A DNA stretch of 64,000 nt from Acidobacteria bacterium Ga0074141 (GCA_001464665.1 LNDP01000023.1:158157-222156), one strand, 5' to 3'; positions 4,418-59,810 are shown, counted from the first letter of the stretch. Numbers and translations are program-made. Notes: generated by a model from the letters alone, not told the origin.

Positions 4418-5827
4418 TTGAGTAACTTAACAAAAGGTCTGATCTTGCTTCTCGTTGTACTTGGCATTGGTGCCGGGCTGGCCGTCTGGAAAAGCAAGGT
4501 CGGCGGCCACTCGAACGCCGGTTTTAATAAGATCACGCAGCAAGAGGTCGAACTTCTTGTGGCTGATCTGGCCGAGCAGAATCCGATGGCGATCAAACGC
4601 CTCGGCGAGGATGCTGAGCTTCGTAAGCAGCAGTTGAACAATCTCAAAGAATTGTTCGCATTTGCCTCTGAGGCGGAGCGGAGCGGAATGACCAATGACC
4701 CGAAATTCCGCAACGAGCTTCAGAACATCCGAACAGAGCTGACGGCAGTAAACTACGACCGCCACATCAACAAAGACAAGGGCCCGATGCCGCCTTTTGG
4801 ATTCATTGGCGAGGATCAGGTCAAGGCATTCTGGGGTGAAGGCGAACAGCCGGCCAAAGGCTTCTTTGAGAACGCAAAGGACACGATCGGACTCGGCAAA
4901 CGCGACAACGAAATGGCCTTTCAGCGTTTTCTTGATACAAAGATCACACTGCTGAAAGAAAGCAATCCGGCGATGAAAGACCGCGAGATCTCTGAAGAAG
5001 AGAAAACGCAGGCCCGGGAATTCTTTGCAAAGATCAACATATACAACGAAGAATTCGAGACCAAGATCGCCTCGGGCGAACTGCCGAAAGAGCTGAAAGA
5101 TAAGATCGACCTGCAGGTAAAGCTACAGCAAGCCCAATTCCTTGCCCGCGTTTACTCGGACAAGATGGCCAAAGAGATCGAAGTAACCGACGATGATGTC
5201 GCGGCCTACATTGCGGCGAATCCGGAATTTGATACCTCGGCTAAACGAGCCAAGGCTGATGAGATACTCGCTCGTGCTAAAGGCGGCGAAGACTTTGCCG
5301 CTCTTGCGAATGAATTTAGCGAAGATCCGGGCAACAACGCCGGTGAAAACGGCAATAAGCGTGGCGGCCTTTACGACAACGTCAGGCTCGGAATGATGGT
5401 AAAGCCCTTTGAGGAAGCCGCTCTTGCACTTGAACCGGGACAGGTCTCGCAGAATCTCGTGGAAACGGATTTTGGATACCACATCATCAAGCTCGAGAAA
5501 AAAGGCGAAGCCGATGGCCGCGAGGGCCAAAAGGAACAGACCTACGATGTGCGGCACATCCTTATATCGACCGGCTTCAAAGACCCGACCAACCCCATCG
5601 GCCGCGAGGAACCGATCAAGCAGTACGTTCGCCGGAAGCTCGAAGAAGAACGTGAGAAAAAGACGATGGAAGACCTCGTCGCCCGAAACAATGTTCAGGT
5701 GCCCGAGGACTTCAACGTCCCGCAGATCACGGACGAGCAAATACAGGAGATGATGAAACAGCAGCAACAGCAGCAGGTTATCAATACTCCCGGTGGGCAC
5801 TCGGAAGGCGATGGACACGACCATTAA
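4418..5827 (+). CDS. PpiC-type peptidyl-prolyl isomerase (SurA/PrsA-like), membrane anchored
   Basis: TTG start with GAGGAA upstream. It has an N-terminal TM helix, a parvulin core ...FEEAALALEPGQVS..VETDFGYHIIKLE, and a poly-Q/His-rich tail. Confidence 0.8.
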   Translation: MSNLTKGLILLLVVLGIGAGLAVWKSKVGGHSNAGFNKITQQEVELLVADLAEQNPMAIKRLGEDAELRKQQLNNLKELFAFASEAERSGMTNDPKFRNELQNIRTELTAVNYDRHINKDKGPMPPFGFIGEDQVKAFWGEGEQPAKGFFENAKDTIGLGKRDNEMAFQRFLDTKITLLKESNPAMKDREISEEEKTQAREFFAKINIYNEEFETKIASGELPKELKDKIDLQVKLQQAQFLARVYSDKMAKEIEVTDDDVAAYIAANPEFDTSAKRAKADEILARAKGGEDFAALANEFSEDPGNNAGENGNKRGGLYDNVRLGMMVKPFEEAALALEPGQVSQNLVETDFGYHIIKLEKKGEADGREGQKEQTYDVRHILISTGFKDPTNPIGREEPIKQYVRRKLEEEREKKTMEDLVARNNVQVPEDFNVPQITDEQIQEMMKQQQQQQVINTPGGHSEGDGHDH

Positions 5828-5841
5828 TTCCGAAAAGTTTG

Positions 5842-6753
5842 ATGGAGTTAGGTGATTACAGAATAGAAATAATTCCGGATACGGAATTTAGATTAGACGG
5901 AGGGGCGATGTTTGGAGTCGTCCCTCGCGTTTTGTGGGAACGCGTCTGCCCGCCGGATGAACTCAACCGGATCCGGCAGCAGATGAACTGCGTCTTCATC
6001 GACACCGGCACAGAAAAGGTCTTGATCGAGACCGGCATCGGCGAAAAATGGACCGAGAAGGAAACGAAGATCTACGGCATCTTCCGCGAGCGGCCCTTTG
6101 CCGCATCGTTGTTTGAGAAAACAGGTTGCACACCCGACGACATTACGATCGTCATCAACACACATCTCCACTTCGACCACGCCGGCGGAAATACGATTAG
6201 CAGTGGTCAGTTGCCGGTGGCCGGTGGCCAGTCAGAACCGCCTGCGTTAGCGGGCGGCCAGTTCGCCGAGACGCAGGCAACTCCCCAATTCCCGAATGCA
6301 CGTTACCTCGTTTCCAAACGCGAGCTCGAACACGCCGAATCCCCGCACGAGCGCGACCGTGCAAGCTATCTTCCCGAAAACTGGCGGCCGATGATCGAGA
6401 CCGGCCAGCTCGAACCGATGCCCGACGAATACGAACCAATTCCGGGCTTAAAGCTCCAAACCATTCGCGGCCACTCTGAAACAATGCAGACTTGGCGGCT
6501 CGACCGCGGCGGCAGAACAATATACGGCTTCGCCGACCTCATCCCGACCCGCCACCACCTCCCGCTGCCGTGGATAATGGGCTACGACCTCTACCCGACC
6601 GAAACGCTTGCGTTCAAGAAAGAAATATTGCCAAGGGCGGTCGAAGAAGGCTGGATGTGTCTTTTTTATCACGATTTCGAGCACCCGCTTTGCAGAATCG
6701 TTGAGGTCTGTGGAAAATTGTCCTCGGAGGTCATCCAAGAACAAGAAAAATGA
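5842..6753 (+). CDS. MBL-fold metallo-hydrolase carrying an in-frame repeat-derived insert
   Basis: HLHFDHAGGN metal motif, later RGHSETM and FYHDFEHP. The ATG at 5842 is preferred over the TTG at 5839. Codons from about 6196 to 6280 are the REP-like element. Confidence 0.8.
   Translation: MELGDYRIEIIPDTEFRLDGGAMFGVVPRVLWERVCPPDELNRIRQQMNCVFIDTGTEKVLIETGIGEKWTEKETKIYGIFRERPFAASLFEKTGCTPDDITIVINTHLHFDHAGGNTISSGQLPVAGGQSEPPALAGGQFAETQATPQFPNARYLVSKRELEHAESPHERDRASYLPENWRPMIETGQLEPMPDEYEPIPGLKLQTIRGHSETMQTWRLDRGGRTIYGFADLIPTRHHLPLPWIMGYDLYPTETLAFKKEILPRAVEEGWMCLFYHDFEHPLCRIVEVCGKLSSEVIQEQEK
6230..6265 (+). repeat. REP-like hairpin repeat, type A, intragenic copy
   Basis: AGTCAGAACCGCCTGCGTTAGCGGGCGGCCAGTTCG. 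It has an 8-bp stem CCGCCTGC/GCGGGCGG with one T-G pair and a GTTA loop. Confidence 0.85.
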
Positions 6754-7970
6754 TTACAAAGCGACAAGCGAGAGTTCGGTGGTTGGTTGTTGGTCTCATG
6801 TTCGTTTCCCTCTGGGCCTTACCCGTACACACGCAGTCCAGGGAAGATACAGCTCGCGGCCAGAAGCATTTTGATACAGGAAACGAGTTGATGGGTAAGG
6901 GTGATCTCCAAAGTGCGATTGCGTCTTATTCCGAAGCAATAGTGTTGCTACCTAAATCGTACCTGCCCTATATGAATCGTGCTATTGCTTACCTTTCATT
7001 GGGCAGGCTCAACGAGGCGGAAGCCGATGCGGTAAAATCGCTAAGTTTGTTTCAGCCGACAATGAAGGACTCCAATCTTCACTTGGCGACGATTTACCAA
7101 GTGAAAGGAACGTTAAAGCAGTATCGAAGAGAGTACACTGCAGCTCTCGAATTTTTCGATAAAGCCATAGAGACGGAACCAACAGCTGCGAAGTTTTACG
7201 ATAGTCAGGCAACAGCCCTGCGCATGCTCGGTCGGGAGAAGGACGCGATCGTCTCTTACAACAAAGCAATTGAGTTGGACAACAGGGAACCCCTTTTCTT
7301 CAACAACCGGGCCGCACTACATGCGCGTTTAGGCGATACCGTATCAGCGTTCGCAGATCTTGACGAAGCATTAAAATTGGATAAGAACGCGAGCAATGCT
7401 TATTACACAAGGGCTTCGATCCGAATGGCCTCGGAGGAATTTGACGAAGCTCTAAACGATCTTAATGAGGCGATCCGCATCGATCCGAGAAAGGCTATCT
7501 TTTTTCATGCTCGCGGAATATTGCACAATCGAAGAAAGCAGTATGATCTAGCAATCAAAGATCATACTCAGGCGATCAGCGTTGATGCGAATCTTGTAGT
7601 CGCTCATGCCGATCGGGCAATCGCCTATTCAGCCATGAAGAACCTTAGCTCCGCTATCGAGGACATGAGGTCGGCTATTCGGATTGACAATGGTTCTGCA
7701 GTTCTACGATACAATTTGGGCTATTTTCTGTATCAGGATCGTCAGTATTCTGAGGCACTCAAAGTTTTGACCGCGGCCATTTCTATTTCTCCAAAATGGG
7801 CTGCACCGTATGTGCTTCGGTCAAACTGCTATGTCGTTCTTAAGCGAAACGACGAAGCTCTTGCCGATAGGAAGATTGCAAAGGAATTGGGTTCTTCTGG
7901 ACGGCCGTCGAGCGATCGATATACGTTTTTCGAGGTCGAAGCACGGCCGCCGGATAACGAAGAAAATTAA
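6750..7970 (+). CDS. secreted TPR repeat protein
   Basis: ATGA overlap with the upstream gene and a signal-like N-terminus (LVVGLMFVSLWALPVHT). It has about 10 TPR units (A..Y..AI.LDP pattern). GC is visibly lower than in the neighbouring genes. Confidence 0.8.
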   Translation: MITKRQARVRWLVVGLMFVSLWALPVHTQSREDTARGQKHFDTGNELMGKGDLQSAIASYSEAIVLLPKSYLPYMNRAIAYLSLGRLNEAEADAVKSLSLFQPTMKDSNLHLATIYQVKGTLKQYRREYTAALEFFDKAIETEPTAAKFYDSQATALRMLGREKDAIVSYNKAIELDNREPLFFNNRAALHARLGDTVSAFADLDEALKLDKNASNAYYTRASIRMASEEFDEALNDLNEAIRIDPRKAIFFHARGILHNRRKQYDLAIKDHTQAISVDANLVVAHADRAIAYSAMKNLSSAIEDMRSAIRIDNGSAVLRYNLGYFLYQDRQYSEALKVLTAAISISPKWAAPYVLRSNCYVVLKRNDEALADRKIAKELGSSGRPSSDRYTFFEVEARPPDNEEN

Positions 7971-8839
7971 TGGAAACTATTACTATTGGAATAATCGGCG
8001 GCAGTGGTCTTTACCAGATGCCGGAGTTGGAAAACGTTCGGGAGCAGACGGTGGAGACGCCGTTCGGCTCGCCGTCGGATGCGTTCATTATTGGCGAACT
8101 GGATGGCGTGACGGTGGCGTTTTTGCCGCGGCATGCCCGCGGGCATAAGTTTACGCCGACGGAAGTGCCGTACCGAGCGAATATCTACGCGATGAAGCTG
8201 ATGGGCGTGGAATACATTCTCTCGGTGTCGGCGGTCGGCTCGCTTCAGGAGCAATATGCACCTACAGATATGGTGATCCCCGACCAGTTCTTTGACCGAA
8301 CGCGTGACCGGGCGAAGGAATCGACGTTCTTTGGCGAAGGCATCGTCGGCCATGTGACGTTCGCACATCCTGTCTGCAATGAGCTCGGCGACATTCTCGA
8401 GGCGGCGTGCAAGACGGTGGATGTAAAAGTGCATCGCGGCGGCACTTATTTGTGTATGGAAGGCCCGGCCTTTTCAACCAAGGCCGAATCGATGGTCTAT
8501 CGCCAGTGGGGCATGGACGTCATCGGCATGACCAACCTGCAGGAAGCAAAGCTTGCTCGCGAGGCCGAGATCGCCTACGCCACGCTCGCCCTCGTCACCG
8601 ACTACGATTGCTGGTACGAGGGCCACGACGACGTCACCATCGATATGGTCATTGCCTATCTGAACAAGAACGTCCGCAACGCCCAGCTTATCCTGAAAGA
8701 CGCCGTAAAACGCGTCGCTGCCAAAGAAACGCCGAACCAGTTCGCCGGAGCGACCAAGAACGCCATCTTCACCGCCCCCGACCACTGGCCCGCGGAAACA
8801 GCAAAGAAGCTGGAGGCGATCATCGGCAAGTACCGCTAA
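7970..8839 (+). CDS. mtnP: S-methyl-5'-thioadenosine phosphorylase
   Basis: IGIIGGSGLY, FLPRHGRGH-like FLPRHARGHKF, MEGPAFST and GMTNLQEAKLAREAEI are characteristic of the PNP/MTAP family. Confidence 0.9.
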   Translation: METITIGIIGGSGLYQMPELENVREQTVETPFGSPSDAFIIGELDGVTVAFLPRHARGHKFTPTEVPYRANIYAMKLMGVEYILSVSAVGSLQEQYAPTDMVIPDQFFDRTRDRAKESTFFGEGIVGHVTFAHPVCNELGDILEAACKTVDVKVHRGGTYLCMEGPAFSTKAESMVYRQWGMDVIGMTNLQEAKLAREAEIAYATLALVTDYDCWYEGHDDVTIDMVIAYLNKNVRNAQLILKDAVKRVAAKETPNQFAGATKNAIFTAPDHWPAETAKKLEAIIGKYR

Positions 8840-8855
8840 CTTTGGAGTCGTTACG

Positions 8856-9371
8856 ATGCTTCGAAATCAGTTCGCATTCTTGATACTGTGCTGGGCCGTT
8901 CTTGTGCTCACGTCAGGGGTCGCCGGCCAAGAATCAAACAGTCAAACCAACGAAACGAAGACGAAGACCCGGAACAATATTTATCATCACCTTGGCAGCG
9001 TCGAATTGCTGGATGGATTTCGAGGATTCGTGCGCGCAAAGTGGGTCGACGCGTGGGCCGGGACGATCGAATCATCAGATGGTGCGCTTACAATTGATTG
9101 GAGAGCGGGCCTGGTCGAAAAAGTTCAGAACTCGCGGCATAGCGACATCATTTCGTCCTACACCGAAGCCACGCCGATTCGAACCATCGTTTGGAGTAGG
9201 CTCCGTGACCGAGAGAAAGAAACGTTGGTCGCGACGATCGGGTGGTTGGAGTTTAGCGTTTCGTTGTCTGGGAGTAAGGATGAGGAGATATTCCGGGATA
9301 TCGTGCAGTCGTTCAGCAAAGAGCGTTGTATCACTTGTTCATCCTTTCGATTTATGTTGCCTAGAGAATAG
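8856..9371 (+). CDS. hypothetical secreted protein
   Basis: 171-aa ORF with a signal peptide (FAFLILCWAVLVLTSGVAGQ). I recognise no family. The alternative frame 8902..9426 is Arg/Cys-rich and looks non-coding. Confidence 0.55.
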   Translation: MLRNQFAFLILCWAVLVLTSGVAGQESNSQTNETKTKTRNNIYHHLGSVELLDGFRGFVRAKWVDAWAGTIESSDGALTIDWRAGLVEKVQNSRHSDIISSYTEATPIRTIVWSRLRDREKETLVATIGWLEFSVSLSGSKDEEIFRDIVQSFSKERCITCSSFRFMLPRE

Positions 9372-9433
9372 AAGCCTGCTCGAAGATTCCGTCACTGGAA
9401 ACCGTACGTGTGTAAATTGCATCTAAATTTCTT

Positions 9434-9889
9434 ATGCGTAAAAGGGTATTTATTTTTCTAATAGCGATCGCCGCATTAGGTGTGAGTGCGTCCGCACAGC
9501 GCAATGTTACACCTGCAATTGACCGTGACCCGCTGCTTGAGGCGGATGCTCTCCATAACCTTGATGTCGCCTGGCAGGCGTTTGGCCCGGCCCGCAAGGC
9601 TTATAAGCAGGTGCTCGGGCGGTTTGAAGAGACCTATGCCGCGTATCCTGAATTCTCTAAGATCGACGAGTTTCTCTACCTCGCCGGGATGAGCAGCTAT
9701 TACCTCTCAAAGAATGAAGGCAAGCAGAAGGTGAACCTTAAGATAGAACGCGAACGCGAAAAATACGACCCGCAGAAGCTTCGCGAAGATGCCGCTGCAT
9801 ACCTAGCGATGATGCTCGAGCGGAACCCTGAAAGTAAATATCGGGAAAACGCCGAGAAAGTGATCAAAGAGCTAAAGCCTGCTGAGTAA
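9434..9889 (+). CDS. hypothetical secreted helical (TPR/BamD-like) protein
   Basis: 151 aa with a signal peptide (FIFLIAIAALGVSASAQ). The composition is helical with a charged C-terminus. Only weak resemblance to BamD/YfiO-like lipoproteins. Confidence 0.55.
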   Translation: MRKRVFIFLIAIAALGVSASAQRNVTPAIDRDPLLEADALHNLDVAWQAFGPARKAYKQVLGRFEETYAAYPEFSKIDEFLYLAGMSSYYLSKNEGKQKVNLKIEREREKYDPQKLREDAAAYLAMMLERNPESKYRENAEKVIKELKPAE

Positions 9890-9910
9890 ATTAACGATCT
9901 TTGTTTCAAC

Positions 9911-9947
9911 GAACTGACCGCCCGCTAACGCAGGCGGTTCTGACTTT
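9911..9947 (-). repeat. REP-like hairpin repeat, type A
   Basis: GAACTGACCGCCCGCTAACGCAGGCGGTTCTGACTTT is the reverse complement of the 6230 copy. It lies between convergent genes. Confidence 0.85.
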
Positions 9948-9948
9948 C

Positions 9949-9975
9949 GAACTGGCCGCCCGCTAACGCAGGCGG
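9949..9975 (-). repeat. REP-like hairpin repeat, type A, truncated
   Basis: GAACTGGCCGCCCGCTAACGCAGGCGG. It is in tandem with the previous unit and lacks the TTCTGAC flank. Confidence 0.8.
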
Positions 9976-10013
9976 CATTCTTATTTTTCGGAGGCGCGAA
10001 AATTCGCCGCGGC

Positions 10014-10493
10014 TTAGATACCGTTGATAAATTTCTGCCCGCCGGCTAGGAAATCCTTAAGGTCATCATCAAGCCCGCTTCCGTGTGCCGAAGGCATCAA
10101 TGTTCCGACGATCCGTTCAAACTTGCTGCCAATCTCTGTCAGTGGCCGTGCGTAGATATTGGCGGGCGATGGGAGTTTACCGATAACGGTCCCAAAAGAC
10201 TGCAACAACTGCCCGTATGCCTTCGCTGCCATTTCCGGGTCTTTCGCGGTCTTCATATTGTTCAGCACCGTAAGGGCGACATAGGCTTTTTCCATGTCCT
10301 CATAGAAGACCGTGCATTCATTCAAGCTTTTGACACCCTTCGACGCAGCCTGGATCTTCTCTTTCACTCGGTTTGGCAACAGGTTGCAGATACCAAACTC
10401 ATAATTCTGGTATTTTTCGACCAATTGAGCCGCCTGATGCAATGTTTCTATCAAACTTGCTTTTGTAACTTTCTTGCTCCACCACCATGCCAT
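10014..10493 (-). CDS. hypothetical protein (orphan, bracketed by hairpin repeats)
   Basis: 159-aa ORF with a protein-like helical composition. The opposite-strand ORF 10083..10718 is Cys/Arg-rich and partly a translation of repeats. No recognisable motif. Confidence 0.5.
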   Translation of the reverse strand: MAWWWSKKVTKASLIETLHQAAQLVEKYQNYEFGICNLLPNRVKEKIQAASKGVKSLNECTVFYEDMEKAYVALTVLNNMKTAKDPEMAAKAYGQLLQSFGTVIGKLPSPANIYARPLTEIGSKFERIVGTLMPSAHGSGLDDDLKDFLAGGQKFINGI

Positions 10494-10602
10494 AACCTGC
10501 TTTCTCCTATTCCTTCTATAAATTTTGGGCGATTTGATTCCTTCCTACTAAATAATGCGGAGAAAGAAGAAAAAAGAGACAAAATTTATAAGAGTCGCAA
10601 AT

Positions 10603-10643
10603 GTCGGAACCCTCTGCGTAAGCGGAGGGTCAAATTGTTTACC
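10603..10643 (+). repeat. REP-like hairpin repeat, type B
   Basis: GTCGGAACCCTCTGCGTAAGCGGAGGGTCAAATTGTTTACC. It has the stem CCCTCTGC/GCGGAGGG and a GTAA loop. Confidence 0.85.
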
Positions 10644-10753
10644 AATTGCACGACCGATTGTTTAAGACAATGTGAACTCCACGCAACTGTCCGCTTAATC
10701 GCATGGGCATTGTCTTAATCCGTTACATATGGCCGGCGAGCCTGTGGGCTAAC

Positions 10754-10790
10754 AAACTGGCCGCCCGCTAACGCAGGCGGTTCTGACTTT
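10754..10790 (-). repeat. REP-like hairpin repeat, type A
   Basis: AAACTGGCCGCCCGCTAACGCAGGCGGTTCTGACTTT. Confidence 0.85.
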
Positions 10791-10799
10791 CGGGCTCGT

Positions 10800-10840
10800 G
10801 TCAGAACCCTCTGCGTAAGCGGAGGGTCAGTTCGTTTACC
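10800..10840 (+). repeat. REP-like hairpin repeat, type B
   Basis: GTCAGAACCCTCTGCGTAAGCGGAGGGTCAGTTCGTTTACC. It matches the 10603 copy at 37 of 41 positions. Confidence 0.85.
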
Positions 10841-10879
10841 AAGTGGCTGCCGGAAAACCCAAGCAGTTCTGCCTCCGGC

Positions 10880-10916
10880 GAACTGGCCGCCTGCTAACGC
10901 AGGCGGTTCTGACTTT
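10880..10916 (-). repeat. REP-like hairpin repeat, type A (perfect stem)
   Basis: GAACTGGCCGCCTGCTAACGCAGGCGGTTCTGACTTT. Here the stem CCGCCTGC/GCAGGCGG is fully Watson-Crick. Confidence 0.85.
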
Positions 10917-10995
10917 CTGGAATCGCAAAAAAGCTCCCTGCGGTGTAAAATCTGTAGCATTAAGTAGCCAGAGGCGAGCGAGTTGAGACTTCAGC

Positions 10996-11022
10996 TGGAT
11001 TCTGACTTCTGGCTTCTGAATT
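10996..11022 (-). repeat. possible degenerate flank remnants of the type A repeat
   Basis: GATTCTGACTTCTGGCTTCTGAATTCT resembles the GTTCTGACTTTCTGG flank seen at 10907..10920. No hairpin core is present. Confidence 0.3.
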
Positions 11023-11032
11023 CTAAAATCAT

Positions 11033-11968
11033 ATGTCACTAACAGTAGTTGGATCGGTCGCTTTTGACGCGCTTGAGACGCCGTTCGGCAAGCGCGATAA
11101 GGTTTTGGGCGGTGCGGCGACGCACTTTGGACTCTCGGCGAGCTTTTTCACTGAGGTGAATGCCGTCGGTGTGGTCGGCGGTGATTTCGGCGATGCCGAG
11201 TGGGACGTTTTCAAACGTCATCATATCAACACCGATGATATCGAGGTCGTGCCGGACGGCAAGACGTTCTTCTGGAGCGGCCGCTACGATTACGACATGA
11301 ACACGGCCCATACGCTCGACACGCAGCTCAACGTCTTTGAAACATTCGACCCAAAGCTTTCCGACAATTCGAAGGGCTCGAAACTGCTCTTCCTCGCCAA
11401 CATCCTTCCGATGCTGCAGAAAGGCGTTCGCGAGCAGTGTCCGGATGCGAAGTTCGTGGCAATGGACACGATGAACTTCTGGATCTCGTCGATGAAGGAC
11501 GCGGTGATAGAGACCATCAAGGTCGTTGACTGCATCATCATCAACGACGCCGAGGCTCGCCAACTTACCGACGAACCGAGCATCTACAAGGCTGCACGTA
11601 AGATCATGGATCTCGGCCTTCGTGCAGTCGTAATCAAACGCGGCGAATATGGAGCGACGCTTTTTACCAGGGACGGTTACTTTGCCGCTCCGGCCTACCC
11701 GCTCGAGAGTGTTTTTGACCCGACCGGTGCGGGCGATACGTTCGCCGGCGGTTTCATGGGCTATCTCGCCGCCCAGAATGAGATCACCGACGACGCAATG
11801 CGGCGGGCGATGATCTACGGCTCTGTAATGGCGTCGTTCAACGTTGAAAAGTTCGGTACCGAGCGGGTCGATGCTCTCGATTATCCTGAGATCAACCAGC
11901 GGTTTGCCGACTTTAAGCGAATGACACATTTCGACGACATTCCGTTCGAGCGGGCGACCGCCGCCTAA
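11033..11968 (+). CDS. PfkB-family carbohydrate/nucleoside kinase
   Basis: N-terminal GS.A.D di-Gly region and the C-terminal DPTGAGDTFAGGF anion-hole motif of the ribokinase/PfkB family. Confidence 0.85.
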   Translation: MSLTVVGSVAFDALETPFGKRDKVLGGAATHFGLSASFFTEVNAVGVVGGDFGDAEWDVFKRHHINTDDIEVVPDGKTFFWSGRYDYDMNTAHTLDTQLNVFETFDPKLSDNSKGSKLLFLANILPMLQKGVREQCPDAKFVAMDTMNFWISSMKDAVIETIKVVDCIIINDAEARQLTDEPSIYKAARKIMDLGLRAVVIKRGEYGATLFTRDGYFAAPAYPLESVFDPTGAGDTFAGGFMGYLAAQNEITDDAMRRAMIYGSVMASFNVEKFGTERVDALDYPEINQRFADFKRMTHFDDIPFERATAA

Positions 11969-12736: not shown

Positions 12737-13500
12737 ACTTATTGGAAAACAAGGTCGGGTTGATTCTCGGCGTCGCAAACAAACGTTCGATCGCCTGGGC
12801 CTGTGCCGATGCCTGCAGCCGCAATGGCGCCCGGCAGGCGTTCTCATATCAGGGCGAGCGGCTTAAGGAAAATGTCGAAAAGCTCGCCGGCGATCTGCCG
12901 GATTCGCTCATCCTGCCGATGGATGTTACGAACCAAGCCGAGGTCGATGCGGCATTCGAGGCGATCGGAAGCAAATTCGGCAAGCTCGATTACATCATTC
13001 ACTCGATCGCATTCGCTCCTCGCGAGGCACTTGAGGGCGATTACGTCGCGACCACGCGGGACGCGTTTCGGACCGCTCTTGAGATCAGCGCCTTCTCGCT
13101 AAACCAGGTGGCATTTGCTGCCGCTCCACTGATGAAGGAAGGCGGCAGTATCGTAACGATGAGCTACTACGGCGCCGAAAAGGTCGTGCGAAATTACAAC
13201 GTAATGGGCGTCGCGAAGGCTGCCCTTGAAGCCTCGGTACGCTACCTCGCCGCCGATCTTGGCAGGCAAGGCATCCGAGTGAATGCCATCTCGGCCGGGC
13301 CACTAAACACGCTTTCCGCCCGCGGAGTTAAGAACATGGGCTCGATGCTTTCGTATGTCGCCGAAAAAGCTCCGTTGCAACGAAACGTAGAGGCAGCCGA
13401 GGTCGGCAACACGGCATTATTTTTGGTGAGCGACCTAGCATCCGGCATAACCGGCGAAACAATTTACGTTGATTGCGGATATAACATTATGGGACTTTAG
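12733..13500 (+). CDS. fabI: enoyl-[acyl-carrier-protein] reductase (NADH) FabI
   Basis: GVANKRSIAW, SYYGAEKVVRNYNVMGVAKAALE (Y-x6-K) and the GETIYVDCGYNIMG C-terminus. Confidence 0.92.
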   Translation: MNLLENKVGLILGVANKRSIAWACADACSRNGARQAFSYQGERLKENVEKLAGDLPDSLILPMDVTNQAEVDAAFEAIGSKFGKLDYIIHSIAFAPREALEGDYVATTRDAFRTALEISAFSLNQVAFAAAPLMKEGGSIVTMSYYGAEKVVRNYNVMGVAKAALEASVRYLAADLGRQGIRVNAISAGPLNTLSARGVKNMGSMLSYVAEKAPLQRNVEAAEVGNTALFLVSDLASGITGETIYVDCGYNIMGL

Positions 13501-13577
13501 GCAGTCGAGGAAGTCGTGGAAGTCTAGGCAGTCTGGGATGTCTGGAATGTCGGGGAGTCTTATTGGCTCAAGAAGTC
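13498..13577. repeat. left array of 9-nt units ending in GTC (complement of GACTTCCTA)
   Basis: The units are TAGGCAGTC GAGGAAGTC GTGGAAGTC TAGGCAGTC TGGGATGTC TGGAATGTC GGGGAGTC ... AAGAAGTC. The array starts at the fabI stop codon. Confidence 0.85.
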
Positions 13578-13614
13578 TTTGGTGCCTCGGTAGTGAACTT
13601 GATTTGTCATTCAC

Positions 13615-13714
13615 GACCTCCAAGACATCCTAGACTGACAAGACTTCCTAGACTAAAAAGGACTTCCTAGACTTCCTCGACATCCAAGACTTCTTAGACT
13701 TCCAAGACTGAATT
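13615..13714. repeat. right array of eleven 9-nt units GACWTCCWA
   Basis: The units are GACCTCCAA GACATCCTA GACTGACAA GACTTCCTA GACTAAAAAG GACTTCCTA GACTTCCTC GACATCCAA GACTTCTTA GACTTCCAA GACTGAATT. The array ends at the ATG of the LOG gene. Confidence 0.85.
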
Positions 13715-32379: not shown

Positions 32380-34539
32380 ATGGCAACTGAGGTTAACAAA
32401 GCAGCGGAAGAAACCGAGAACGGCACCGCCGCGGCAAAAGAAGTAGCAGAAACGGCAAAAGCTGAAGCGGCAATTGAGGCCGCTGATGAGGCGTTGGGCT
32501 CGAATGACATCGACTTTGGCGCGATACTTGAGCAGTTTGAGCAGGACCAGGTGACGTACCACTCCGGCGACATCGTCGAAGGAAAGGTCGTCGGTGTCTC
32601 CGACCATGGCGTGCTCGTCGATTTCGGCTACAAAAGCGAAGGGATCATCCCGGGTGATGAATTTCCTGATGGCCCAGACTCCGTAAAGGTCGGCGACGTT
32701 CTCGAAGTGATGATCAGGAACATCTCGACCGGAGATGCTCCGCCGCTGCTTTCCCGCGACGATGCAGCTAACAGAAAGATTTGGGCCGATATTGAGGAAG
32801 CTTATAAGAATGAGCAGCCGATAGTCGGCAAGATCGTCAGCAAGACCAAGGGCGGGCTCAATGTCGACCTCGGTGGTGTTGAGGCATTTCTCCCGGGCTC
32901 GCAGATCGATTCGCGTCCGGTAGGTAATCTCGACGCATATATTGGCCAGGACATCGAAGCTCAGATAATCAAGTTCAGCCGCAAGCGGAACAACATCGTT
33001 CTCTCGCGAAAGGTGATTACTGACCAGGTCATCAATGAACAGAAGGCAGAAACCCTCGCTGTGATCGAGGTCGGCCACGTCATCGAAGGAACGGTCAAGA
33101 ACCTTACCGAATATGGTGCGTTTGTCGATATCGGCGGCATCGATGGGCTTCTCCACGTAACAGATATGTCGTGGGGAAGGATCCAGAACCCCGGCGAGAT
33201 GTTCAAGCCCGGCGATAATATTCAGGTAAAGGTGATCAAGCTCGACCGCGAGAAAGAAAAGATCTCGCTCGGTTATAAACAGCTTCATCCTGACCCCTGG
33301 TCAACTGTCGTCGAGTTCTACCCGGTCAACACAAAGCTTACGGGCAAGGTATCGTCGGTTGCGGATTACGGCATTTTTGTCGAACTGCAGCCTGGAGTCG
33401 AAGGACTTGTCCACGTCTCCGAGATCTCATGGTCAAAGCGTCCGGGCAGCCCCAAAAAGCTTCACCGCCGCGGCGACGAGGTCGAAGTTCAGGTTCTCGG
33501 TGTCGACACCGACGAACGCCGCATCAGTCTCGGCATGAAGCAGATGCAGGACAACCCTTGGGACTCCGTCGCTGCCCGCTTCCCGGTCGGCACAAAGATC
33601 CGCGGCAAGGTTCGCAATCTTACGGACTTCGGTGCCTTTGTTGAGGTCGAAGACGGCATCGATGGGCTCGTTCACATCTCGGACATCACCTGGGGCCGCA
33701 AGCTTCAGCACCCGAAAGAACTTCTGAAGAAGGACCAGGAAGTCGATGCGATAGTGACGAACATCGACATTGCCGGGCAGCGTCTCTCGCTCTCGATGAA
33801 GGACCTCACACCGAGTTCATGGGAGTCGTTCATCGCAACGCACAAACCGGGCGATACGATTCGCGGTAAGGTTTCGCGGTTCACCAATTTCGGTGTTTTT
33901 GTCGAACTCGGCGATGGGCTCGAAGGGCTTTGCCACATCTCGGAACTTTCCGACGAGCGTGTCGAAAAAGCCGAGGACGTTGTTCAACTCGGCCAGGAGA
34001 TGGACTTTAAGATCCTCCGCATCGAGAACGAAGAGCAGAAGATCGGCCTATCGCATCGTTCGGTCGGCAAGGACGACGAACCGATCGTTGATACCCGCCA
34101 GTACACAAGCGTCGCGAAGGGCGGGATGGCTTCGCTCGGCGAACTGGCGAATCTGAAGTTTGGCTCGGCCGCTCAGCAGCCGGCTGAGGAAAAGAAAGCC
34201 GATAAGAAAGCAGATAAAAAGGCCGAGCCTGCAGCAGAAGAAAAGGTTGAACAGCCCGCTCCTGAGCCTTCAGCAGAAGAAGCAGCTGAAGAGCCGGTGG
34301 CTGAAACAGCAGAAACGGTAGAAGCTCCGGCCGAAGAGGTTTCTGAAACGCAAACCGAAGAAGCGACCTCTGAAGTAAAGGCTGACGAGGAAGTTGCCGA
34401 AGCGACCGCCGCCGAAGAAACGGCCGAGGTTGCGGAAGCGGCCGCTGAAGAAACCGTAGAACCGGCGACCGAAGCCGAAACTCCCATCGAAGCCGAATCA
34501 TCGGGCGACGACGAAGCAGCAGACGAAAAGACTGCCTAG
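32380..34539 (+). CDS. rpsA: 30S ribosomal protein S1 with long acidic C-terminal tail
   Basis: Six S1 (OB) repeats (G.V..V...G.FVD..G..GL.H.S). The last roughly 150 aa are Ala/Glu/Lys/Thr low-complexity sequence. Confidence 0.95.
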   Translation: MATEVNKAAEETENGTAAAKEVAETAKAEAAIEAADEALGSNDIDFGAILEQFEQDQVTYHSGDIVEGKVVGVSDHGVLVDFGYKSEGIIPGDEFPDGPDSVKVGDVLEVMIRNISTGDAPPLLSRDDAANRKIWADIEEAYKNEQPIVGKIVSKTKGGLNVDLGGVEAFLPGSQIDSRPVGNLDAYIGQDIEAQIIKFSRKRNNIVLSRKVITDQVINEQKAETLAVIEVGHVIEGTVKNLTEYGAFVDIGGIDGLLHVTDMSWGRIQNPGEMFKPGDNIQVKVIKLDREKEKISLGYKQLHPDPWSTVVEFYPVNTKLTGKVSSVADYGIFVELQPGVEGLVHVSEISWSKRPGSPKKLHRRGDEVEVQVLGVDTDERRISLGMKQMQDNPWDSVAARFPVGTKIRGKVRNLTDFGAFVEVEDGIDGLVHISDITWGRKLQHPKELLKKDQEVDAIVTNIDIAGQRLSLSMKDLTPSSWESFIATHKPGDTIRGKVSRFTNFGVFVELGDGLEGLCHISELSDERVEKAEDVVQLGQEMDFKILRIENEEQKIGLSHRSVGKDDEPIVDTRQYTSVAKGGMASLGELANLKFGSAAQQPAEEKKADKKADKKAEPAAEEKVEQPAPEPSAEEAAEEPVAETAETVEAPAEEVSETQTEEATSEVKADEEVAEATAAEETAEVAEAAAEETVEPATEAETPIEAESSGDDEAADEKTA

Positions 34540-49315: not shown

Positions 49316-50356
49316 TTATGAACCGGCCGCCTTCTGACCTTCGCGAAGTTTTGCTGCGATCGCCGGGATGATCTTTCGCGGTGCATCTATCGCGGCTTTG
49401 ATGTGGCGCTTGTTCGTGAAGTGCCCGGCCACGTAAATCCCCGGGACATTTGTTTCGTGGGTCTTCGGGTCATAGACGGGAACATCGCCGTATTTTCCGC
49501 GTTCGGTTTCGACGCCGAGCGACCGGAGCATCGTCAGGTCGGCATCCGAACCGATGAGCACGAAAACTACATCGTTCTCAAGCACGACGCGTTCGCCGGA
49601 TTCGCTTTCGAGTTCGACCTCGCTTTCGCGGATCTCGACCACCTTGCCCAGAAAAAAGAGGCTGAGGCAATGCTGTTTTAGCTCCTCTTCAAGCGGCTGC
49701 CTGACCCAATATTTAATGCAGCCCTGCTTCGGGTCGGTGTTTTCCCAATCGTCGCGAAAGATGGCGAGCGTCGTCTCGGCACCTTCCTGAGCCAGAAAAA
49801 GTGCAGCCTCGCCCGCCGAATTTCCGCCGCCGACGACCAGTGCCTTTTTCTTCACCCAGGGATAGGTCTCGCGAAAAAGATCGCGAACCTTTGACAGATC
49901 ATCCCCCGGCACACCCAGCCGCCGCGGATGATCCATCGCCCCGATCGCAAAAAGCACATTCCGAGCAGCATAGTCGCCCTTGTCCGTAACGACACAAAAG
50001 CTCCCCTCCTTACGAAGGAGGGGTGCCGACGCTTCGTCGGCGGGGTGGTTCTCTTCGCGTCGCACTTCCAGAACTGTCTCTTCGGTCCTCACGTCCAGCT
50101 CATTCTCCAAAACAAACCGCACGTAATACGAAAGCAACTCTTCCCGCGTCGGCTTCTCCCTCGCCGGTTTCAGGTCGCCCTCACCGAACTCAAGCTCATT
50201 CACCGTCGAAAAAACCGTCAGCCCGACCGGGTAATTATAGATCGTATTCCCGATCAGGCCCTTTTCGATGACAACGTAATCGAGCCCCGCCTGCTTCGCC
50301 TCAAACGCCGCCGAGATCCCCGCGGGCCCCGCCCCGATAATGATCAAATCGTACAT
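49316..50356 (-). CDS. FAD/NAD(P)-dependent disulfide oxidoreductase, YpdA-like, with in-frame palindromic insert
   Basis: DLIIIGAGPAGISAA dinucleotide fold, IYNYP..LTVFS (YpdA-like) and a second GGGNSAGEAA fold. An insert ...EENHPADEASAPLLRKEGS... is encoded by two perfect hairpins. Confidence 0.8.
   Translation of the reverse strand: MYDLIIIGAGPAGISAAFEAKQAGLDYVVIEKGLIGNTIYNYPVGLTVFSTVNELEFGEGDLKPAREKPTREELLSYYVRFVLENELDVRTEETVLEVRREENHPADEASAPLLRKEGSFCVVTDKGDYAARNVLFAIGAMDHPRRLGVPGDDLSKVRDLFRETYPWVKKKALVVGGGNSAGEAALFLAQEGAETTLAIFRDDWENTDPKQGCIKYWVRQPLEEELKQHCLSLFFLGKVVEIRESEVELESESGERVVLENDVVFVLIGSDADLTMLRSLGVETERGKYGDVPVYDPKTHETNVPGIYVAGHFTNKRHIKAAIDAPRKIIPAIAAKLREGQKAAGS
50003..50041 (-). 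repeat. intragenic double perfect hairpin (possibly related to type B repeat)
   Basis: The first hairpin is CCCCTCCTT-ACG-AAGGAGGGG (9 bp) and the second is GCCGACG-CTT-CGTCGGC (7 bp). On the sense strand the unit starts GAACC and has a CGTAAG centre like type B. Confidence 0.6.
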
Positions 50357-56383: not shown

Positions 56384-58249
56384 ATGAAAAGACTCTCTCT
56401 TGTCCTTGTCGTAGGCATAGCCGCCATGTCGGCTCTCCTGGTTCTCTCACCACAAACCTCGGGTAAGTCTGAAAAACTGATCAAGCACGAAAATTCCGTC
56501 CCCGGAAGGTATATTGTCGTATTTGATCCTGATTCGGTTCAGGGGTTTTCTACCGAAGCGGAAATGAGCGCCGTCTCGCACAATATCGCCGCCGAATATA
56601 ACGCGGCTGTCGATAAAGTGTGGGAAAGCGCCGTTCAGGGCTTCTCGGCCGAAATGTCCCCCAAAGATGCCGAGCGCCTCAGCCGCGACCCGCGCGTCAA
56701 GCTGGTCGAAGAGGATATGATCGCCTATGCCGGCAACGTGCAGGGCTCTGCTGACTGGGGGCTTGACCGTATTGACCAACGTGGACTACCGCTGAATGGC
56801 GCATTTACCTATTCCGAAACCGGACAGGGCGTAAATGTCTATGTGATCGATAGCGGCATCCGCCCGACCCACGTCGAATTTGGCGGGCGAGCGGCTGTTG
56901 CTTTTGACGCGGTCAACGACGGCCAGAACGGCATTGACTGCCACGGACACGGTACGCACGTCGCCGGAACGGTCGCAAGTTCGACCTACGGCGTCGCGAA
57001 GCAAGCAAACGTCTATGGCGTTCGCGTGCTTTCCTGCGGCGGCTCAGGACTCGTTTCAAACATCATTACCGGCGTCAACTGGGTTAAGAACAATCGCGTA
57101 AACCCGGCAGTCGTCAACATGAGCCTCTGGGTCAGTGCCGTTTCGACTACGCTTGACAGCGCGATCAACAGCTCGGTCGCCTCGGGCGTAACGCACGTTG
57201 TTGCCGCCGGCAATCGCAACCTTGACGCCTGTAACTATTCGCCTTCAAGCGCATCGTCGGCACTTGTTGTCGCCGCGACCGGCAGCGATGACGCGAAGGC
57301 TTCCTATTCGAACTGGGGGACGTGTGTCGATCTCTTCGCTCCAGGCTCCGGCATCACATCGCTCGGGCATTCGAGCGACACAGCAATTCGTGGCATGAGC
57401 GGCACATCGATGTCCTCGCCGATGGTCGCCGGTGCCGCAGCACTTTATCTTCAGGCAAATCCGACCGCAAGCCCGACGACCTTAAAGAATCGCATTCTTG
57501 CCGATTCGACATCCGGTGTTGTCAGCGGGCTCGACACCGTAACGCCAAACAAAATGCTTTACTCATGGCTTGGCGATTCGCAGCCGCCGACACCAGGTTC
57601 GGTCACGATAATCAAGCAGGTCCTTACGGCCACCGGCGGAACAGCATCCACCGATACCTTTACGTACTCTGCCAGCAACATCGGAGCGACCGCTTTCACG
57701 CTAGTTGATAACGACGCCCCACCCGAGGACCGGTACGTGGACGCAAACGTATTTGTCCAGAATGTTTCGAGCACGATAGCAGTTAGCGAAGATATTAAGC
57801 ACGGCTGGCAGCTCAACTCCATCAACTGTGTCGAAACCGCCGGCGGCGGGCTACCCAATCAGCAGAACACCACGACCGATCTCAATACAAAAACCGCTAA
57901 CATCATTGTCGAAGAGGGCGAAGCGGTCACCTGCACCTTCACAAGTAGCCAGATCGCTCCAACCTCGGCCGGTGCGACCGTCATGGGTCGTGTGTTGAAT
58001 GACGACGGTTCGGCTATATCATCCTCTCGCTTGACCCTGCTAAACCTTTCGACCGGTGAAGAGTGGTCGGCGTTGACCAACTCATTCGGCTACTTTGTAT
58101 TTGAGGGAATACCGGTTTCTGGCTTCTATGCTGTCTCGGTCAATGAAAGCAAGCGGCACGTTTTCGCCCCGGCGACCCGGACATTCTCGCTCGACGGCGA
58201 CATAAGCGGCCTCGACTTCGAGGCATCTCAGCGAACAGAATGGCCATGA
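56384..58249 (+). CDS. secreted S8 (proteinase K-like) serine peptidase with I9 propeptide and C-terminal CarboxypepD_reg-like module
   Basis: AGGAG RBS, a signal peptide and an I9-like propeptide (YIVVF...GFSAEMS). The catalytic triad is VYVIDSGI (Asp), HGTHVAGT (His) and GTSMSSPMVAG (Ser). A prealbumin-like middle domain (GWQLNSINC...VTCTFTS) is followed by GRVLNDDG...TNSFGYFVFEGI... Confidence 0.92.
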   Translation: MKRLSLVLVVGIAAMSALLVLSPQTSGKSEKLIKHENSVPGRYIVVFDPDSVQGFSTEAEMSAVSHNIAAEYNAAVDKVWESAVQGFSAEMSPKDAERLSRDPRVKLVEEDMIAYAGNVQGSADWGLDRIDQRGLPLNGAFTYSETGQGVNVYVIDSGIRPTHVEFGGRAAVAFDAVNDGQNGIDCHGHGTHVAGTVASSTYGVAKQANVYGVRVLSCGGSGLVSNIITGVNWVKNNRVNPAVVNMSLWVSAVSTTLDSAINSSVASGVTHVVAAGNRNLDACNYSPSSASSALVVAATGSDDAKASYSNWGTCVDLFAPGSGITSLGHSSDTAIRGMSGTSMSSPMVAGAAALYLQANPTASPTTLKNRILADSTSGVVSGLDTVTPNKMLYSWLGDSQPPTPGSVTIIKQVLTATGGTASTDTFTYSASNIGATAFTLVDNDAPPEDRYVDANVFVQNVSSTIAVSEDIKHGWQLNSINCVETAGGGLPNQQNTTTDLNTKTANIIVEEGEAVTCTFTSSQIAPTSAGATVMGRVLNDDGSAISSSRLTLLNLSTGEEWSALTNSFGYFVFEGIPVSGFYAVSVNESKRHVFAPATRTFSLDGDISGLDFEASQRTEWP

Positions 58250-58280
58250 TCGCCTTCTAACCGCAAAACAGTAATAAAAA

Positions 58281-58315
58281 AACGCCTCGGTTTCGGCCGG
58301 GGCGTTCTACATTTT
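58281..58315 (+). terminator. terminator of the S8 peptidase gene
   Basis: AACGCCTCGG tttcgg CCGGGGCGTT stem. The downstream T-run is weak (TCTACATTTT). Confidence 0.6.
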
Positions 58316-58773
58316 CGGCGTCTGATCTGCGTTTTTAGGCGTAAATGGGGCATCGGTCAGGATGGATCAAAATACGTCAATGTATTTTTTGGAAAATGTC
58401 TGGAATGGCACTATACTCAGGCAAACGGAATGATAAAAGACGTCCTCTAATGAACGCATTCGACGTCCGAGATATTGTGGGCAGGATTAACAGCGACCAC
58501 AACCGGGTTCGATTTCATGCATTAGCGGAGAGTTTATTTGAAAAGCTTTTAACACTTACCGAACTTGGGACTTTTGATTTTTCTGACATACTTAGAATAA
58601 TTTGTTAGGCCCAACGGTAATGACCTTTAATGCACAAGTTTAGCGGCTTTGATCGAGGGCTCGGCGGGGAAACCCCGTCTCCGATGTATCGGAGATCTCC
58701 CCCGTCGGTTCACCGAATGAGTCCAGTCTGGTTCTCCTTTAGGGAGACTGTCGGTTTAGGAGTAAAGAGAATT

Positions 58774-59589
58774 ATGCGTTTCCCCCATGGAACAATTTCA
58801 AAGGTAGCAGCAGCGTTCATGCTCTGCACACTCGTATTTGTCAATTTGACCGCTGCTCAGTTCAAGAGCTCGGATGAAGATTCAAAGATCACCAAGATCG
58901 AAACACGTGCCGAGGTAGCACCGACTCCAGATCCGCTGCCCGGAAATCCGACCTGTGCCAGCATTAATCCTGCGTGGGGCGAATACAAGCTCGACTTTGA
59001 ATTTCCAAATGGCTCATTTCCATTCACGGCTCAGGGTGTGGTTCCGAAAAGAACTTACGACGCCGGCGGAACCGGATTGGCTCCGAACCCGAATCTGTAC
59101 ATGAACGTGTCTTCGTCAGGAGCAACGATGACGCAGTGGTCGCTTAGCCCGATCAATCAGATCGATCGGCTTATCGTTTACGTGATCGTAAAGGGCGGCA
59201 ATAGTGCCAACGGCTATTCGTACCCCACAGGATCGATCGGTGATACGGGGTCATTCACAACTCAAGGAACTCGAAATGCTATCAGCCACCTTACGTTCTG
59301 CTTCGATGCCTTTAGCGGGCCGTCGTCGGCTCCGGTTTCGATCTCGGGCCGAGCTCTGACTTCCGATGGGTCTGGGATCGCCTATACCCGTATTGAGGTA
59401 ATGGACCTTTCGACCGGTGAGGTAGTATCAGCGGTGACGAACCATTTCGGCTATTACACCGTCCCGCAGCTCGAGGCCGAGGCGATCTATATGGTGACAG
59501 CGATGCATAAGCGACATACGTTTATCAATAATCAAAGGACCGTGACGGCTAGCGAGGATCTGGCCGGGGTAGACTTCGTCGCTCCGTAG
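58774..59589 (+). CDS. secreted protein of unknown family with C-terminal CarboxypepD_reg-like module (paralog 1)
   Basis: The ATG at 58774 follows AGGAG and gives a signal peptide (AAAFMLCTLVFVNLTAAQ). It has a novel N-domain of about 150 aa with 2 conserved Cys, then FSGPSSAPVSISGRALT...TNHFGYYTV...AGVDFVAP. Confidence 0.65.
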   Translation: MRFPHGTISKVAAAFMLCTLVFVNLTAAQFKSSDEDSKITKIETRAEVAPTPDPLPGNPTCASINPAWGEYKLDFEFPNGSFPFTAQGVVPKRTYDAGGTGLAPNPNLYMNVSSSGATMTQWSLSPINQIDRLIVYVIVKGGNSANGYSYPTGSIGDTGSFTTQGTRNAISHLTFCFDAFSGPSSAPVSISGRALTSDGSGIAYTRIEVMDLSTGEVVSAVTNHFGYYTVPQLEAEAIYMVTAMHKRHTFINNQRTVTASEDLAGVDFVAP

Positions 59590-59681
59590 TCATTCGAGTT
59601 TTGAAGCCAGTCGTGGCCCGGAATAAGACGCATAGAAGCTCTGATCGACGACAAATGTCGCTCGCGTAGGCTTGATATTTG

Positions 59682-59726
59682 TTGACATGTCTGAATTTAT
59701 CTGTTAAACATTCCATATTGTTTAAC
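59682..59726 (+). promoter_or_regulatory. candidate promoter plus palindromic operator of paralog 2
   Basis: TTGACA (59682..59687), a 17-nt spacer, then TAAACA. The perfect inverted repeat GTTAAACA-N8-TGTTTAAC (59703..59726) overlaps the -10. Confidence 0.4.
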
Positions 59727-59810
59727 ATATTGGCAGAGCCCCGGACCGGCCTTTCCGTCCGGTAATTTGGGTCCGAGTGCCCTTTTGCATTAAAGAGGAG
59801 TTAAGGAGTT

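Follow-up and report, generated by a model that had tools for sequence, protein, structure and literature searches.

A dispersed palindromic repeat, very probably an in-frame insertion, in a surface loop of an acidobacterial MBL-fold hydrolase

In a 64,000-nucleotide stretch of DNA from Acidobacteria bacterium Ga0074141 (GCA_001464665.1, LNDP01000023.1:158157-222156; “the window” below, with positions counted from its first letter), a gene for a metallo-beta-lactamase (MBL)-fold hydrolase contains a short hairpin-forming repeat that resembles repetitive extragenic palindromic (REP) sequences. We call this repeat REP-A. Within the gene, it lies at 6231..6265 on the + strand and is translated as SEPPALAGGQF. 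The segment is very probably a tolerated in-frame insertion of a short, non-autonomous, dispersed palindromic REP-like repeat. A first-pass annotation, made from the sequence alone, had placed a REP-like hairpin in frame directly after HLHFDHAGGNT in the open reading frame (ORF) 5842..6753, and both the translation and the match of this ORF to Pfam family PF00753 agree with that placement.

The host gene (5842..6753, +) encodes an MBL-fold metallo-hydrolase of 303 amino acids, with the Lactamase_B domain (PF00753), the HxHxDH metal-binding motif, and the downstream His/Asp/His ligands. The motif (HLHFDH, residues 108-113; 6163..6180, +) ends 12 nt 5' of the expanded loop that is described below. 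The closest solved structure is 3esh from S. aureus, followed by lactonase-like and methyl-parathion-hydrolase-like structures, and a sequence search against the PDB also matches the protein to AiiA-type lactonases. Given a model of the host protein, Foldseek returned 3esh, PoOPH, and MPH as the best matches, with a template modeling (TM) score of 0.73-0.80 for the fold match to 3esh. A protein search yielded thousands of homologs, and the best 120 of these are 66-100% identical to the query. Across an alignment of 44 orthologs, H108, H110, D112, H113, H211, D232, and H277 are unchanged, and all of the protein is highly conserved except for the stretch from HAGGN to PQFPNARY. Outside the loop, the ratio of nonsynonymous to synonymous divergence (dN/dS) is about 0.08 at dS of about 1, as compared to the loci L001, L002, L084, and L003. 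Overall, the host gene is intact and is under strong purifying selection.

The variable stretch is an expanded loop of 32 amino acids, TISSGQLPVAGGQSEPPALAGGQFAETQATPQ (6193..6288, +), that begins 5 residues past the metal ligand H113. We surveyed loop lengths in 80 species-representative genomes and, separately, in the 120 closest orthologs. The loop has 12-13 residues (T.LD..G.AVPA) in 37 Pyrinomonadaceae loci, 11 residues in the outgroup loci with a readable loop (7 of 26), and 12-54 residues in the 17 loci nearest to the window. Among the 120 closest orthologs, it has 12-69 residues, with a median of 27. Expanded loops (17-54 residues in the genome survey, 17-69 overall) are confined to the subclade of the window, where they consist of translated repeats from several families. 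The structure 3esh aligns only to host residues 1-122 and 150-281, which leaves 27 query residues against 3, or about 24 extra residues; the excess over the nearest orthologs with 12-residue loops is 20 residues, or 60 nt. The first-pass annotation had proposed that about 80 nt were inserted and that orthologs would show a gap of about 27 amino acids. The insertion and the gap are both there, against 3esh as well as against the 12-residue orthologs, but the size was overestimated, with 60 nt rather than 80 nt and 20-24 residues rather than 27. In the AlphaFold model, residues 113-143 are disordered, with a predicted local distance difference test (pLDDT) score below 50, which is consistent with the earlier suggestion of a loop beside the metal site. 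Together, the gap relative to 3esh, the orthologs with short loops, the low pLDDT, and the constraint on the gene indicate that the extra segment was inserted into a loop on the surface of a functioning enzyme.

Relative to a 12-residue loop, the 60 extra nucleotides have two parts: a heptamer run and the palindromic element. The repeat proper accounts for 27-36 nt, and the remaining extra DNA is the heptamer run (GGTCAGT TGCCGGT GGCCGGT GGCCAGT; 6205..6232, +), which encodes GQLPVAGGQ. Tandem Repeats Finder reported 6213-6229 of this run, with a period of 7 and 2.4 perfect copies. The three flank motifs that had been noticed here earlier are present where they were placed, and they belong to this short run. 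Its last unit (GGTGGCCAGT, 6223-6232) forms a direct repeat with the palindromic element's tail (GGCGGCCAGT, 6253-6262). Blocks that resemble the run are found in the loops of L003, L008, and L014 (SEQLSVNSYQ, SGQSSVDNCQ, and others), and no convincing dispersed copies of the window's heptamer block were found in 2 Mb of loci.

The 36-nt core, as it was first quoted, lies at 6230-6265 (+) and is read within the gene as SSGQLPVAGGQSEPPALAGGQFAETQA, with the frame kept. REP-A comprises a GTCA head (6231-6234), an 8-bp stem (CCGCCTGC, 6238-6245) that returns as GCGGGCGG (6250-6257) after the loop GTTA (6246-6249), and a tail that is optional (CCAGTTCG, 6258-6265). The core of the family, 27 nt, is GTCAGAACCGCCTGCGTYAGCGGGCGG. 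We built a consensus from the 82 metagenome copies that had full 30-nt flanks, out of 87 copies in the first 80 loci. Conservation begins abruptly at the GTCA head (GTCG in a minority of copies), and continues through GAACC-GCCTGC-GTYA-GCGGGC-GG, for 27 nt with the head included; slightly fewer than half of the copies have the CCAGTTCG tail.

Elsewhere in the window, the 36-nt core matches 9910-9945 (-), 10753-10788 (-), and 10879-10914 (-) with one mismatch each, while shuffled sequences are expected to give 0 matches. The first of these is part of an intergenic tandem pair (9908..9987, -), just 3' of the stop codon of an ORF at 10014..10493 (-); its partner is a head-less copy at 9948-9975 (-) with 28/28 identity. 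The second is part of an inverted doublet (10751..10845), together with a variant REP at 10799-10845 (+), and this doublet can fold as one long hairpin (DNA fold of -27.2 kcal/mol, z = -4.9). The third (10876..10918, -) is also intergenic and has a U-A pair in place of the U.G pair. Copies of the variant subfamily (GAACCCTCTGCGTAAGCGGAGGG) are found at 10607-10629 (+) and 10804-10826 (+), and the variant element at 10602..10648 (+) has compensatory stem changes (CCCTCTGC GTAA GCGGAGGG). The earlier count of six more intergenic occurrences was right, if one includes three copies with a single mismatch, one truncated copy, and two variant copies. We found no REP-A or variant copies in the 64-kb window beyond these six and the genic one, for a total of seven copies with one of seven intragenic.

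Across 13 compared copies, the stem is paired at every position (104 of 104 cells, or 100%), and there are two compensatory pairs. A conserved U.G pair means that only one strand can form a perfect hairpin, and in the MBL gene this is the sense strand of the mRNA. Folded as RNA, the loop in its entirety shows no significant gain in stability over shuffled sequences (z = -1.5), and only the 8-bp stem is supported. A search of the whole window against Rfam 15 gave nothing at the gathering thresholds, and for 5800-11100, with E values of up to 1, there were only chance-level matches (mir-127 at 24.6 bits with a threshold of 60, and CRISPR-DR33 at 21.8 with a threshold of 39). We rejected an intrinsic terminator: a terminator scan does not list the hairpin, and no T-run lies 3' of the stem. 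We also rejected a MITE (miniature inverted-repeat transposable element; a length of 70-300 bp, with inverted repeats at its termini and duplicated target sites), as the element is only 27-36 nt.

Could the segment instead be ancestral protein sequence that is similar to the repeats by coincidence, or could the ORF be a pseudogene that was disrupted by a repeat? Close orthologs also have the segment, and nothing else favors either idea. Against them, the core matches dispersed copies with at most one mismatch when 0 matches are expected by chance, there are over 100 copies in unrelated contexts, orthologs and outgroups with short loops exist, and the frame and the catalytic residues are intact, with a dN/dS of 0.08. 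We consider both ideas extremely improbable. The first-pass annotation had reasoned that an insertion would be contradicted if orthologs from unrelated genomes carried the same segment with no nucleotide similarity to the intergenic repeats. This is not what we see: orthologs outside the subclade have a 12-residue loop and lack the segment.

REP-A is widespread in soil metagenomes and is often found within genes. Scanning metagenome contigs with the exact 23-nt core identified at least 133 copies in at least 119 stretches, which come from many organisms. Copies no closer than 200 nt to the end of a contig were considered to be assessable (105 among the matches listed), and a copy was considered to be intragenic if a frame was open for at least 60 codons on each side. 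By this definition, 52 of the 105 assessable copies among the matches listed are intragenic, as compared to 65% for positions drawn at random from these contigs. Among the intragenic copies in this list, 35 of 52 are read as SEPPA[SL]AGG, 12 of 52 as the antisense PPA[ND]AGGSD, and 5 of 52 in some other way. This means that 47 of 52 are in two frames, even though 4-5 of the 6 frames are free of stop codons (p = 3e-8 for sense, p = 0.006 for antisense). The sense orientation is preferred, 38:14, among the intragenic copies listed. Also, the GTCA variant of the loop, which encodes serine, is enriched in genes, while GTTA is enriched in intergenic copies (p = 9e-4, Fisher's exact test).

We checked six hosts with Pfam, and all are ordinary enzymes: a phosphoglucomutase, a flavin adenine dinucleotide (FAD) monooxygenase, a Rieske oxygenase, CoaBC, a GH92 protein, and a xanthine dehydrogenase. 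In four of the six, namely phosphoglucomutase, CoaBC, GH92, and xanthine dehydrogenase, the domains that matched Pfam lie on either side of the repeat. Sense and antisense A-type copies stand a few residues apart in L135 (CoaBC), L152, L097/L121, and L138, each a whole inverted doublet translated in frame, such as SEPPASAGG...PAAYAAGSD in the linker between CoaC and CoaB. Inverted doublets are also present in L130 and L152. We found no repeat-flanked transposase in the window or in the collected metagenome loci. L113 had seemed to contain a transposase gene flanked by inverted repeats, but this contig is a mirror-image assembly of the end of a GspF-like gene. Its positions 1600-2520 are palindromic around 2070, with one REP on either side, and such repeats may seed assembly artefacts.

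A second gene in the window also carries a repeat within its reading frame. REP-B (49998..50055, -) is an in-frame double hairpin that is read as ENHPADEASAPLLRKEGS inside 49316..50356 (-), a gene for a YpdA/Bdr-like FAD reductase (Pfam PF13738). Structure 7a7b in the PDB has a 14-residue gap opposite REP-B, and the loop is hypervariable in the 120 closest YpdA orthologs. Their loops contain REP-B in both orientations, an A-type element, and peptides that are type-D-like or derived from heptamers (ECG.R); peptide type C does not recur in the loops of these 120 orthologs. Orthologs of both host genes (P0004 and P0163) are found on a 6.99-Mb contig that its source labels as “Leptolyngbya sp. 7M.” They are 79-84% identical to Pyrinomonadaceae proteins, so this record may be mislabelled or contaminated.

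The MBL loop differs widely among orthologs. The loci L001 and L081 are sisters, with 95% nucleotide identity outside the loop, and their loops differ solely by TCAGAACCGCCTGCGTTAGCAGGTGGTCAG, which is exactly 30 nt and corresponds to 6232-6261 of the window. In L001, this segment is flanked by a 10-nt direct repeat (GGTGGTCAGT) that overlaps the element's own stem and tail. The difference would represent either a precise loss or an empty site, and loss in L081 seems the simpler reading because the window, L001, and L002 have a common junction of heptamers and repeat. The first-pass annotation had offered a recent hit as one option, but the insertion is not very recent, as this heptamer-plus-repeat architecture is common to orthologs at dS of about 1.

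Other orthologs have other arrangements. The loop of L082 contains two tandem A-type copies and one inverted copy, every one of them in frame, and the loop of L083 contains a composite element that is found again in L196. In L084, L082, and L083, the repeat is at another junction, directly after TIL and without the heptamer block. The DNA for the loop of L054 (SPPYEGGVDAASADGVV) matches 49998-50025 of the window (28 of 28 nt) and also sites in L121, L137, and L161, and the loop of L006 (162 nt) matches other sites within L006. The MBL loops of L003, L007, L009-L011, L014, and L015 include heptamer runs that are translated in frame, and decayed copies of the element are recognizable in P0004 (KPEPIASAGDRF), P0007 (SESPELGGDQF), and P0018 (SEPSVSPDGQF). 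Overall, the loop peptides of 97 of the 120 orthologs belong to about eight recurring types. A DNA source for peptide types C and D was hardly found in the collected loci. Nothing convincing was found in 2 Mb of loci when we looked for dispersed copies of the loops of L003, L005, L007, L008, L011, L015, and L016, so for these loops, a repeat origin rests on their tandem structure or on the recurrence of the peptide in the second gene.

Several points weigh against the simplest form of the insertion reading. The AlphaFold model of the host is only moderate, with a mean pLDDT of 69. The mobility of REP-A is suggested solely by its distribution, and it is from the frame that a peptide containing SEPPALAGGQF is predicted to be made. 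The share of copies that are intragenic may be overestimated because intergenic repeat clusters break metagenome assemblies. As for L001 and L081, a 30-nt indel between 10-nt direct repeats could reflect slippage during replication and not excision or insertion. Finally, the repeat is too well conserved. Between the window and L001 or L002, 33/36 and 35/36 of its nucleotides are identical (92-97%), as compared to 79-80% for the genes, and its third positions match at 9/12 and 12/12, as compared to a background of about 60%. A purely neutral passenger that was inherited from long ago would not be expected to look like this. To account for it, selection on the hairpin, renewal from other copies, or more recent, recurrent insertion is needed.

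Selection on the hairpin would imply that the hairpin or its peptide was recruited for a function, with the hairpin slowing ribosomes or stabilizing the transcript at the mRNA level or with the peptide acting as a flexible lid at the metal site, which the start of the loop just 5 residues past H113 would suit. Beyond the high conservation of the repeat, including at synonymous sites, the substitutions among orthologs keep the stem paired, by G.U pairs or by compensatory changes, and both the U.G version of the stem in the MBL gene and the majority of the listed intragenic copies (38:14) are on the sense strand. However, among orthologs that are 70-88% identical, the content of the loop is entirely different and includes other repeat families and heptamer runs that do not form hairpins. 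The element was probably lost from L081, a sister at 95% gene identity, P0004, P0007, and P0018 have decayed copies, the same element is found in many unrelated genes, and there is no U-tract and hence no intrinsic terminator. We think that recruitment is unlikely. The first-pass suggestion of a tolerated loop insertion stands, but its proposal that the palindrome had been exapted into protein is not borne out: loop content is radically different between orthologs, and a 95%-identical sister lacks the repeat.

The high conservation could also be explained if the window's copy, instead of being an old insert with vertical descent, had been replaced or regained, whether through repeated insertion into this one site or through gene conversion by other copies in the genome. 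In that case, the loop would be an active insertion hotspot where repeats attract repeats. We view this as quite possible, if somewhat less probable than not. The two copies in L082 have one common compensatory variant of the stem, which suggests that they came from another source subfamily, and the other junction in L084, L082, and L083 (after TIL, with the heptamer block absent) speaks for more than one gain. Also, the nested or composite element in L083 recurs elsewhere, and the repeats cluster in intergenic DNA as well. A precedent is recB, where two Xanthomonas species have different REPs at roughly one and the same position (PMC3733652). On the other hand, the heptamer-plus-repeat junction is identical in the window, L001, and L002, for which common descent is the simplest explanation, and neither a target motif nor a transposase could be linked to the element.

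The repeat load of the genome bears on this question. With up to 4 mismatches allowed and the two variant-subfamily copies excluded, there are 5 REP-A-like copies in the 64-kb window, or about 8 per 100 kb. The density is 1.6 per 100 kb in loci with expanded loops, 0.2 in loci with 12-residue loops, and 0 in the outgroup. The window and the expanded-loop clade thus have the highest densities, with a drop of about ten-fold in genomes that have the 12-residue loop. Loop expansion therefore follows the repeat load of the genome, and a filter for permissive sites may suffice without renewal. We rejected “nucleation” as a necessary cause of the clade-specific expansion: it is not needed, given that the expanded-loop clade is far denser in repeats.

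Our favored explanation remains a tolerated insertion, and it would have come about as follows. REP-A and a short run of GGCCAGT-type heptamers would have entered the loop after HxHxDH of a conserved hydrolase. Mobilization would probably proceed via single-stranded hairpins and be carried out by a REP-associated tyrosine transposase (RAYT) or an IS200-like tyrosine transposase. The added DNA is a multiple of three, is stop-free in its frame, and encodes a peptide that is rich in Ser, Pro, Ala, and Gly (SEPPALAGGQ). Because of its length and the lack of a stop codon, the insert would be translated as a disordered surface loop while the enzyme stays under purifying selection, and its effect on the enzyme would be near-neutral. 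The case would be part of a clade-wide pattern. In Pyrinomonadaceae that are rich in REPs, about half of the family's copies are in frame in real genes, mostly in loops and in linkers between domains, with selection retaining almost only the two reading frames that yield flexible and benign peptides. Expanded loops would then go on to gain, lose, and swap repeats of several families, which would make them hypervariable between orthologs.

More tentatively, coding DNA may be a regular habitat for families of palindromic repeats in REP-rich Pyrinomonadaceae, with certain surface loops and linkers in conserved housekeeping enzymes as landing pads. Different families may insert there, duplicate, exchange or homogenize, and vanish, so that these loops would be the counterpart, within genes, of the intergenic REP clusters. 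The repeats may even be shaped for life in genes, given that most of their frames are free of stop codons and that the variant that encodes serine is enriched in genes. We are rather doubtful of this extended scenario, but if it is true, then the repeats are a steady supply of new loop sequence beside active sites.

The six intergenic copies in the window are all in a variable island (9890-11032) that has a YfiO-like gene on one side and a gene for a PfkB kinase on the other. They bracket the ORF at 10014..10493 (-), which encodes 159 amino acids, has a lower GC content (0.40-0.49), and has no match in Pfam. In L084, two other small ORFs occupy the same syntenic gap. An 81-amino-acid ORF at 10715..10960 (-), with KSEPPALAGGQF twice, was treated as an artefact, namely a translation of intergenic REP copies. 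Intergenic tandem arrays of short units are found at 13497-13560, 13620-13712, and 10986-11030 (GGAAGTC, GGCAGTC, and TTCTGAC types), and the two arrays near 13.5-13.7 kb together make up a long inverted repeat. Two sets of longer direct repeats were also noted. At 33135-33944, there are 3-4 repeats within coding sequence, spaced at 258-261 nt, that resemble repeated protein domains, and at 58044-60698, there are repeats with 67-76% identity, spaced at 1109-1361 nt, that are probably tandem paralogous genes.

Cyanobacterial short tandemly repeated repetitive (STRR) sequences are tandem heptanucleotide repeats that are described as intergenic and cyanobacterial. The tandem heptamer arrays at 6205-6232, 10986-11030, and 13497-13712, and in the loops of orthologs, are similar to these. 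Unlike the STRR sequences, the heptamer runs that we describe are also read in frame within a gene.

The closest parallels for REP-A itself are in-frame palindromes. According to PMC10969869 and PMC3733652, the RPEs (Rickettsia palindromic elements; Ogata et al. 2000) are selfish palindromes of about 100-150 bp (about 150 bp in PMC10969869) that are in frame in many unrelated functional genes; nearly half of them are in ORFs, and their peptides are compatible with the fold of the host protein. REP-A is similar in that it is in frame in genes that are still functional and in that about half of its copies are intragenic. It differs in that it is only 27-36 nt and has no sequence relation to the RPEs, and its hosts are free-living soil Acidobacteriota and not intracellular alphaproteobacteria with reduced genomes. 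In these two accounts, the serial colonization of one loop by several families is not described for RPEs.

REPs with a GTAG/CGTC head are G+C-rich stem-loops of 20-40 nt, with a tetranucleotide head, frequent G.T pairs, compensatory subfamilies, and dimers (PMC3733652). Most of these are intergenic, but Di Nocera et al. (2013, PMC3733652) describe in-frame intragenic copies from Opitutus terrae, Thauera, Xanthomonas, and others, and grouped in-frame copies encode 20-30 amino acids (PMC3733652). REP-A is likewise a short G+C-rich stem-loop with a conserved head, compensatory subfamilies, and doublets. However, its head is GTCA or GTCG, of which only GTCG fits the degenerate GTMG of PMC3733652, and it is not among the families that are listed there. 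Furthermore, about 50% of its assessable copies are intragenic, and its bias in reading frame has been quantified. REP-A thus lacks two of the features that define classical REPs, namely the extragenic location and the GTAG/CGTC head. REPINs, which are described as extragenic (REPIN-RAYT; Bertels and Rainey 2011, PMC3116915), are similar to REP-A in having clustered short hairpins, inverted doublets that fold into a long hairpin (as at 10751-10845), and vertical persistence within a clade. Intragenic copies of enterobacterial repetitive intergenic consensus (ERIC) sequences and other small mobile sequences of enterobacteria add new peptide segments (Delihas 2007, as cited in PMC10969869). ERIC-type elements differ from REP-A in being longer, MITE-like with terminal inverted repeats, and only sporadically intragenic.

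A literature search, which was not exhaustive, found nothing on REP-A, on its peptides, or on intragenic repeats in Acidobacteriota. In-frame selfish palindromes have mostly been regarded as an oddity that is found in Rickettsia and in few genomes besides, and here they occur at scale in soil bacteria. The hosts are free-living and globally abundant, and with thousands of metagenomic orthologs on hand, they provide a natural experiment on where in a protein an insertion is tolerated, which of a repeat's reading frames persist, and how quickly inserts are gained and lost. There is also a warning for annotators: such repeats yield spurious hypothetical ORFs, inflate the apparent diversity of loops, and can mislead alignments and structure predictions. 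Overall, REP-A belongs with the in-frame repeats that are already known from the RPEs of Rickettsia and the intragenic GTAG/CGTC REPs. As compared to these known cases, what is notable is the scale, as genes hold about half of the copies, along with the strong filter on reading frame and the serial colonization of the same loops by several families.

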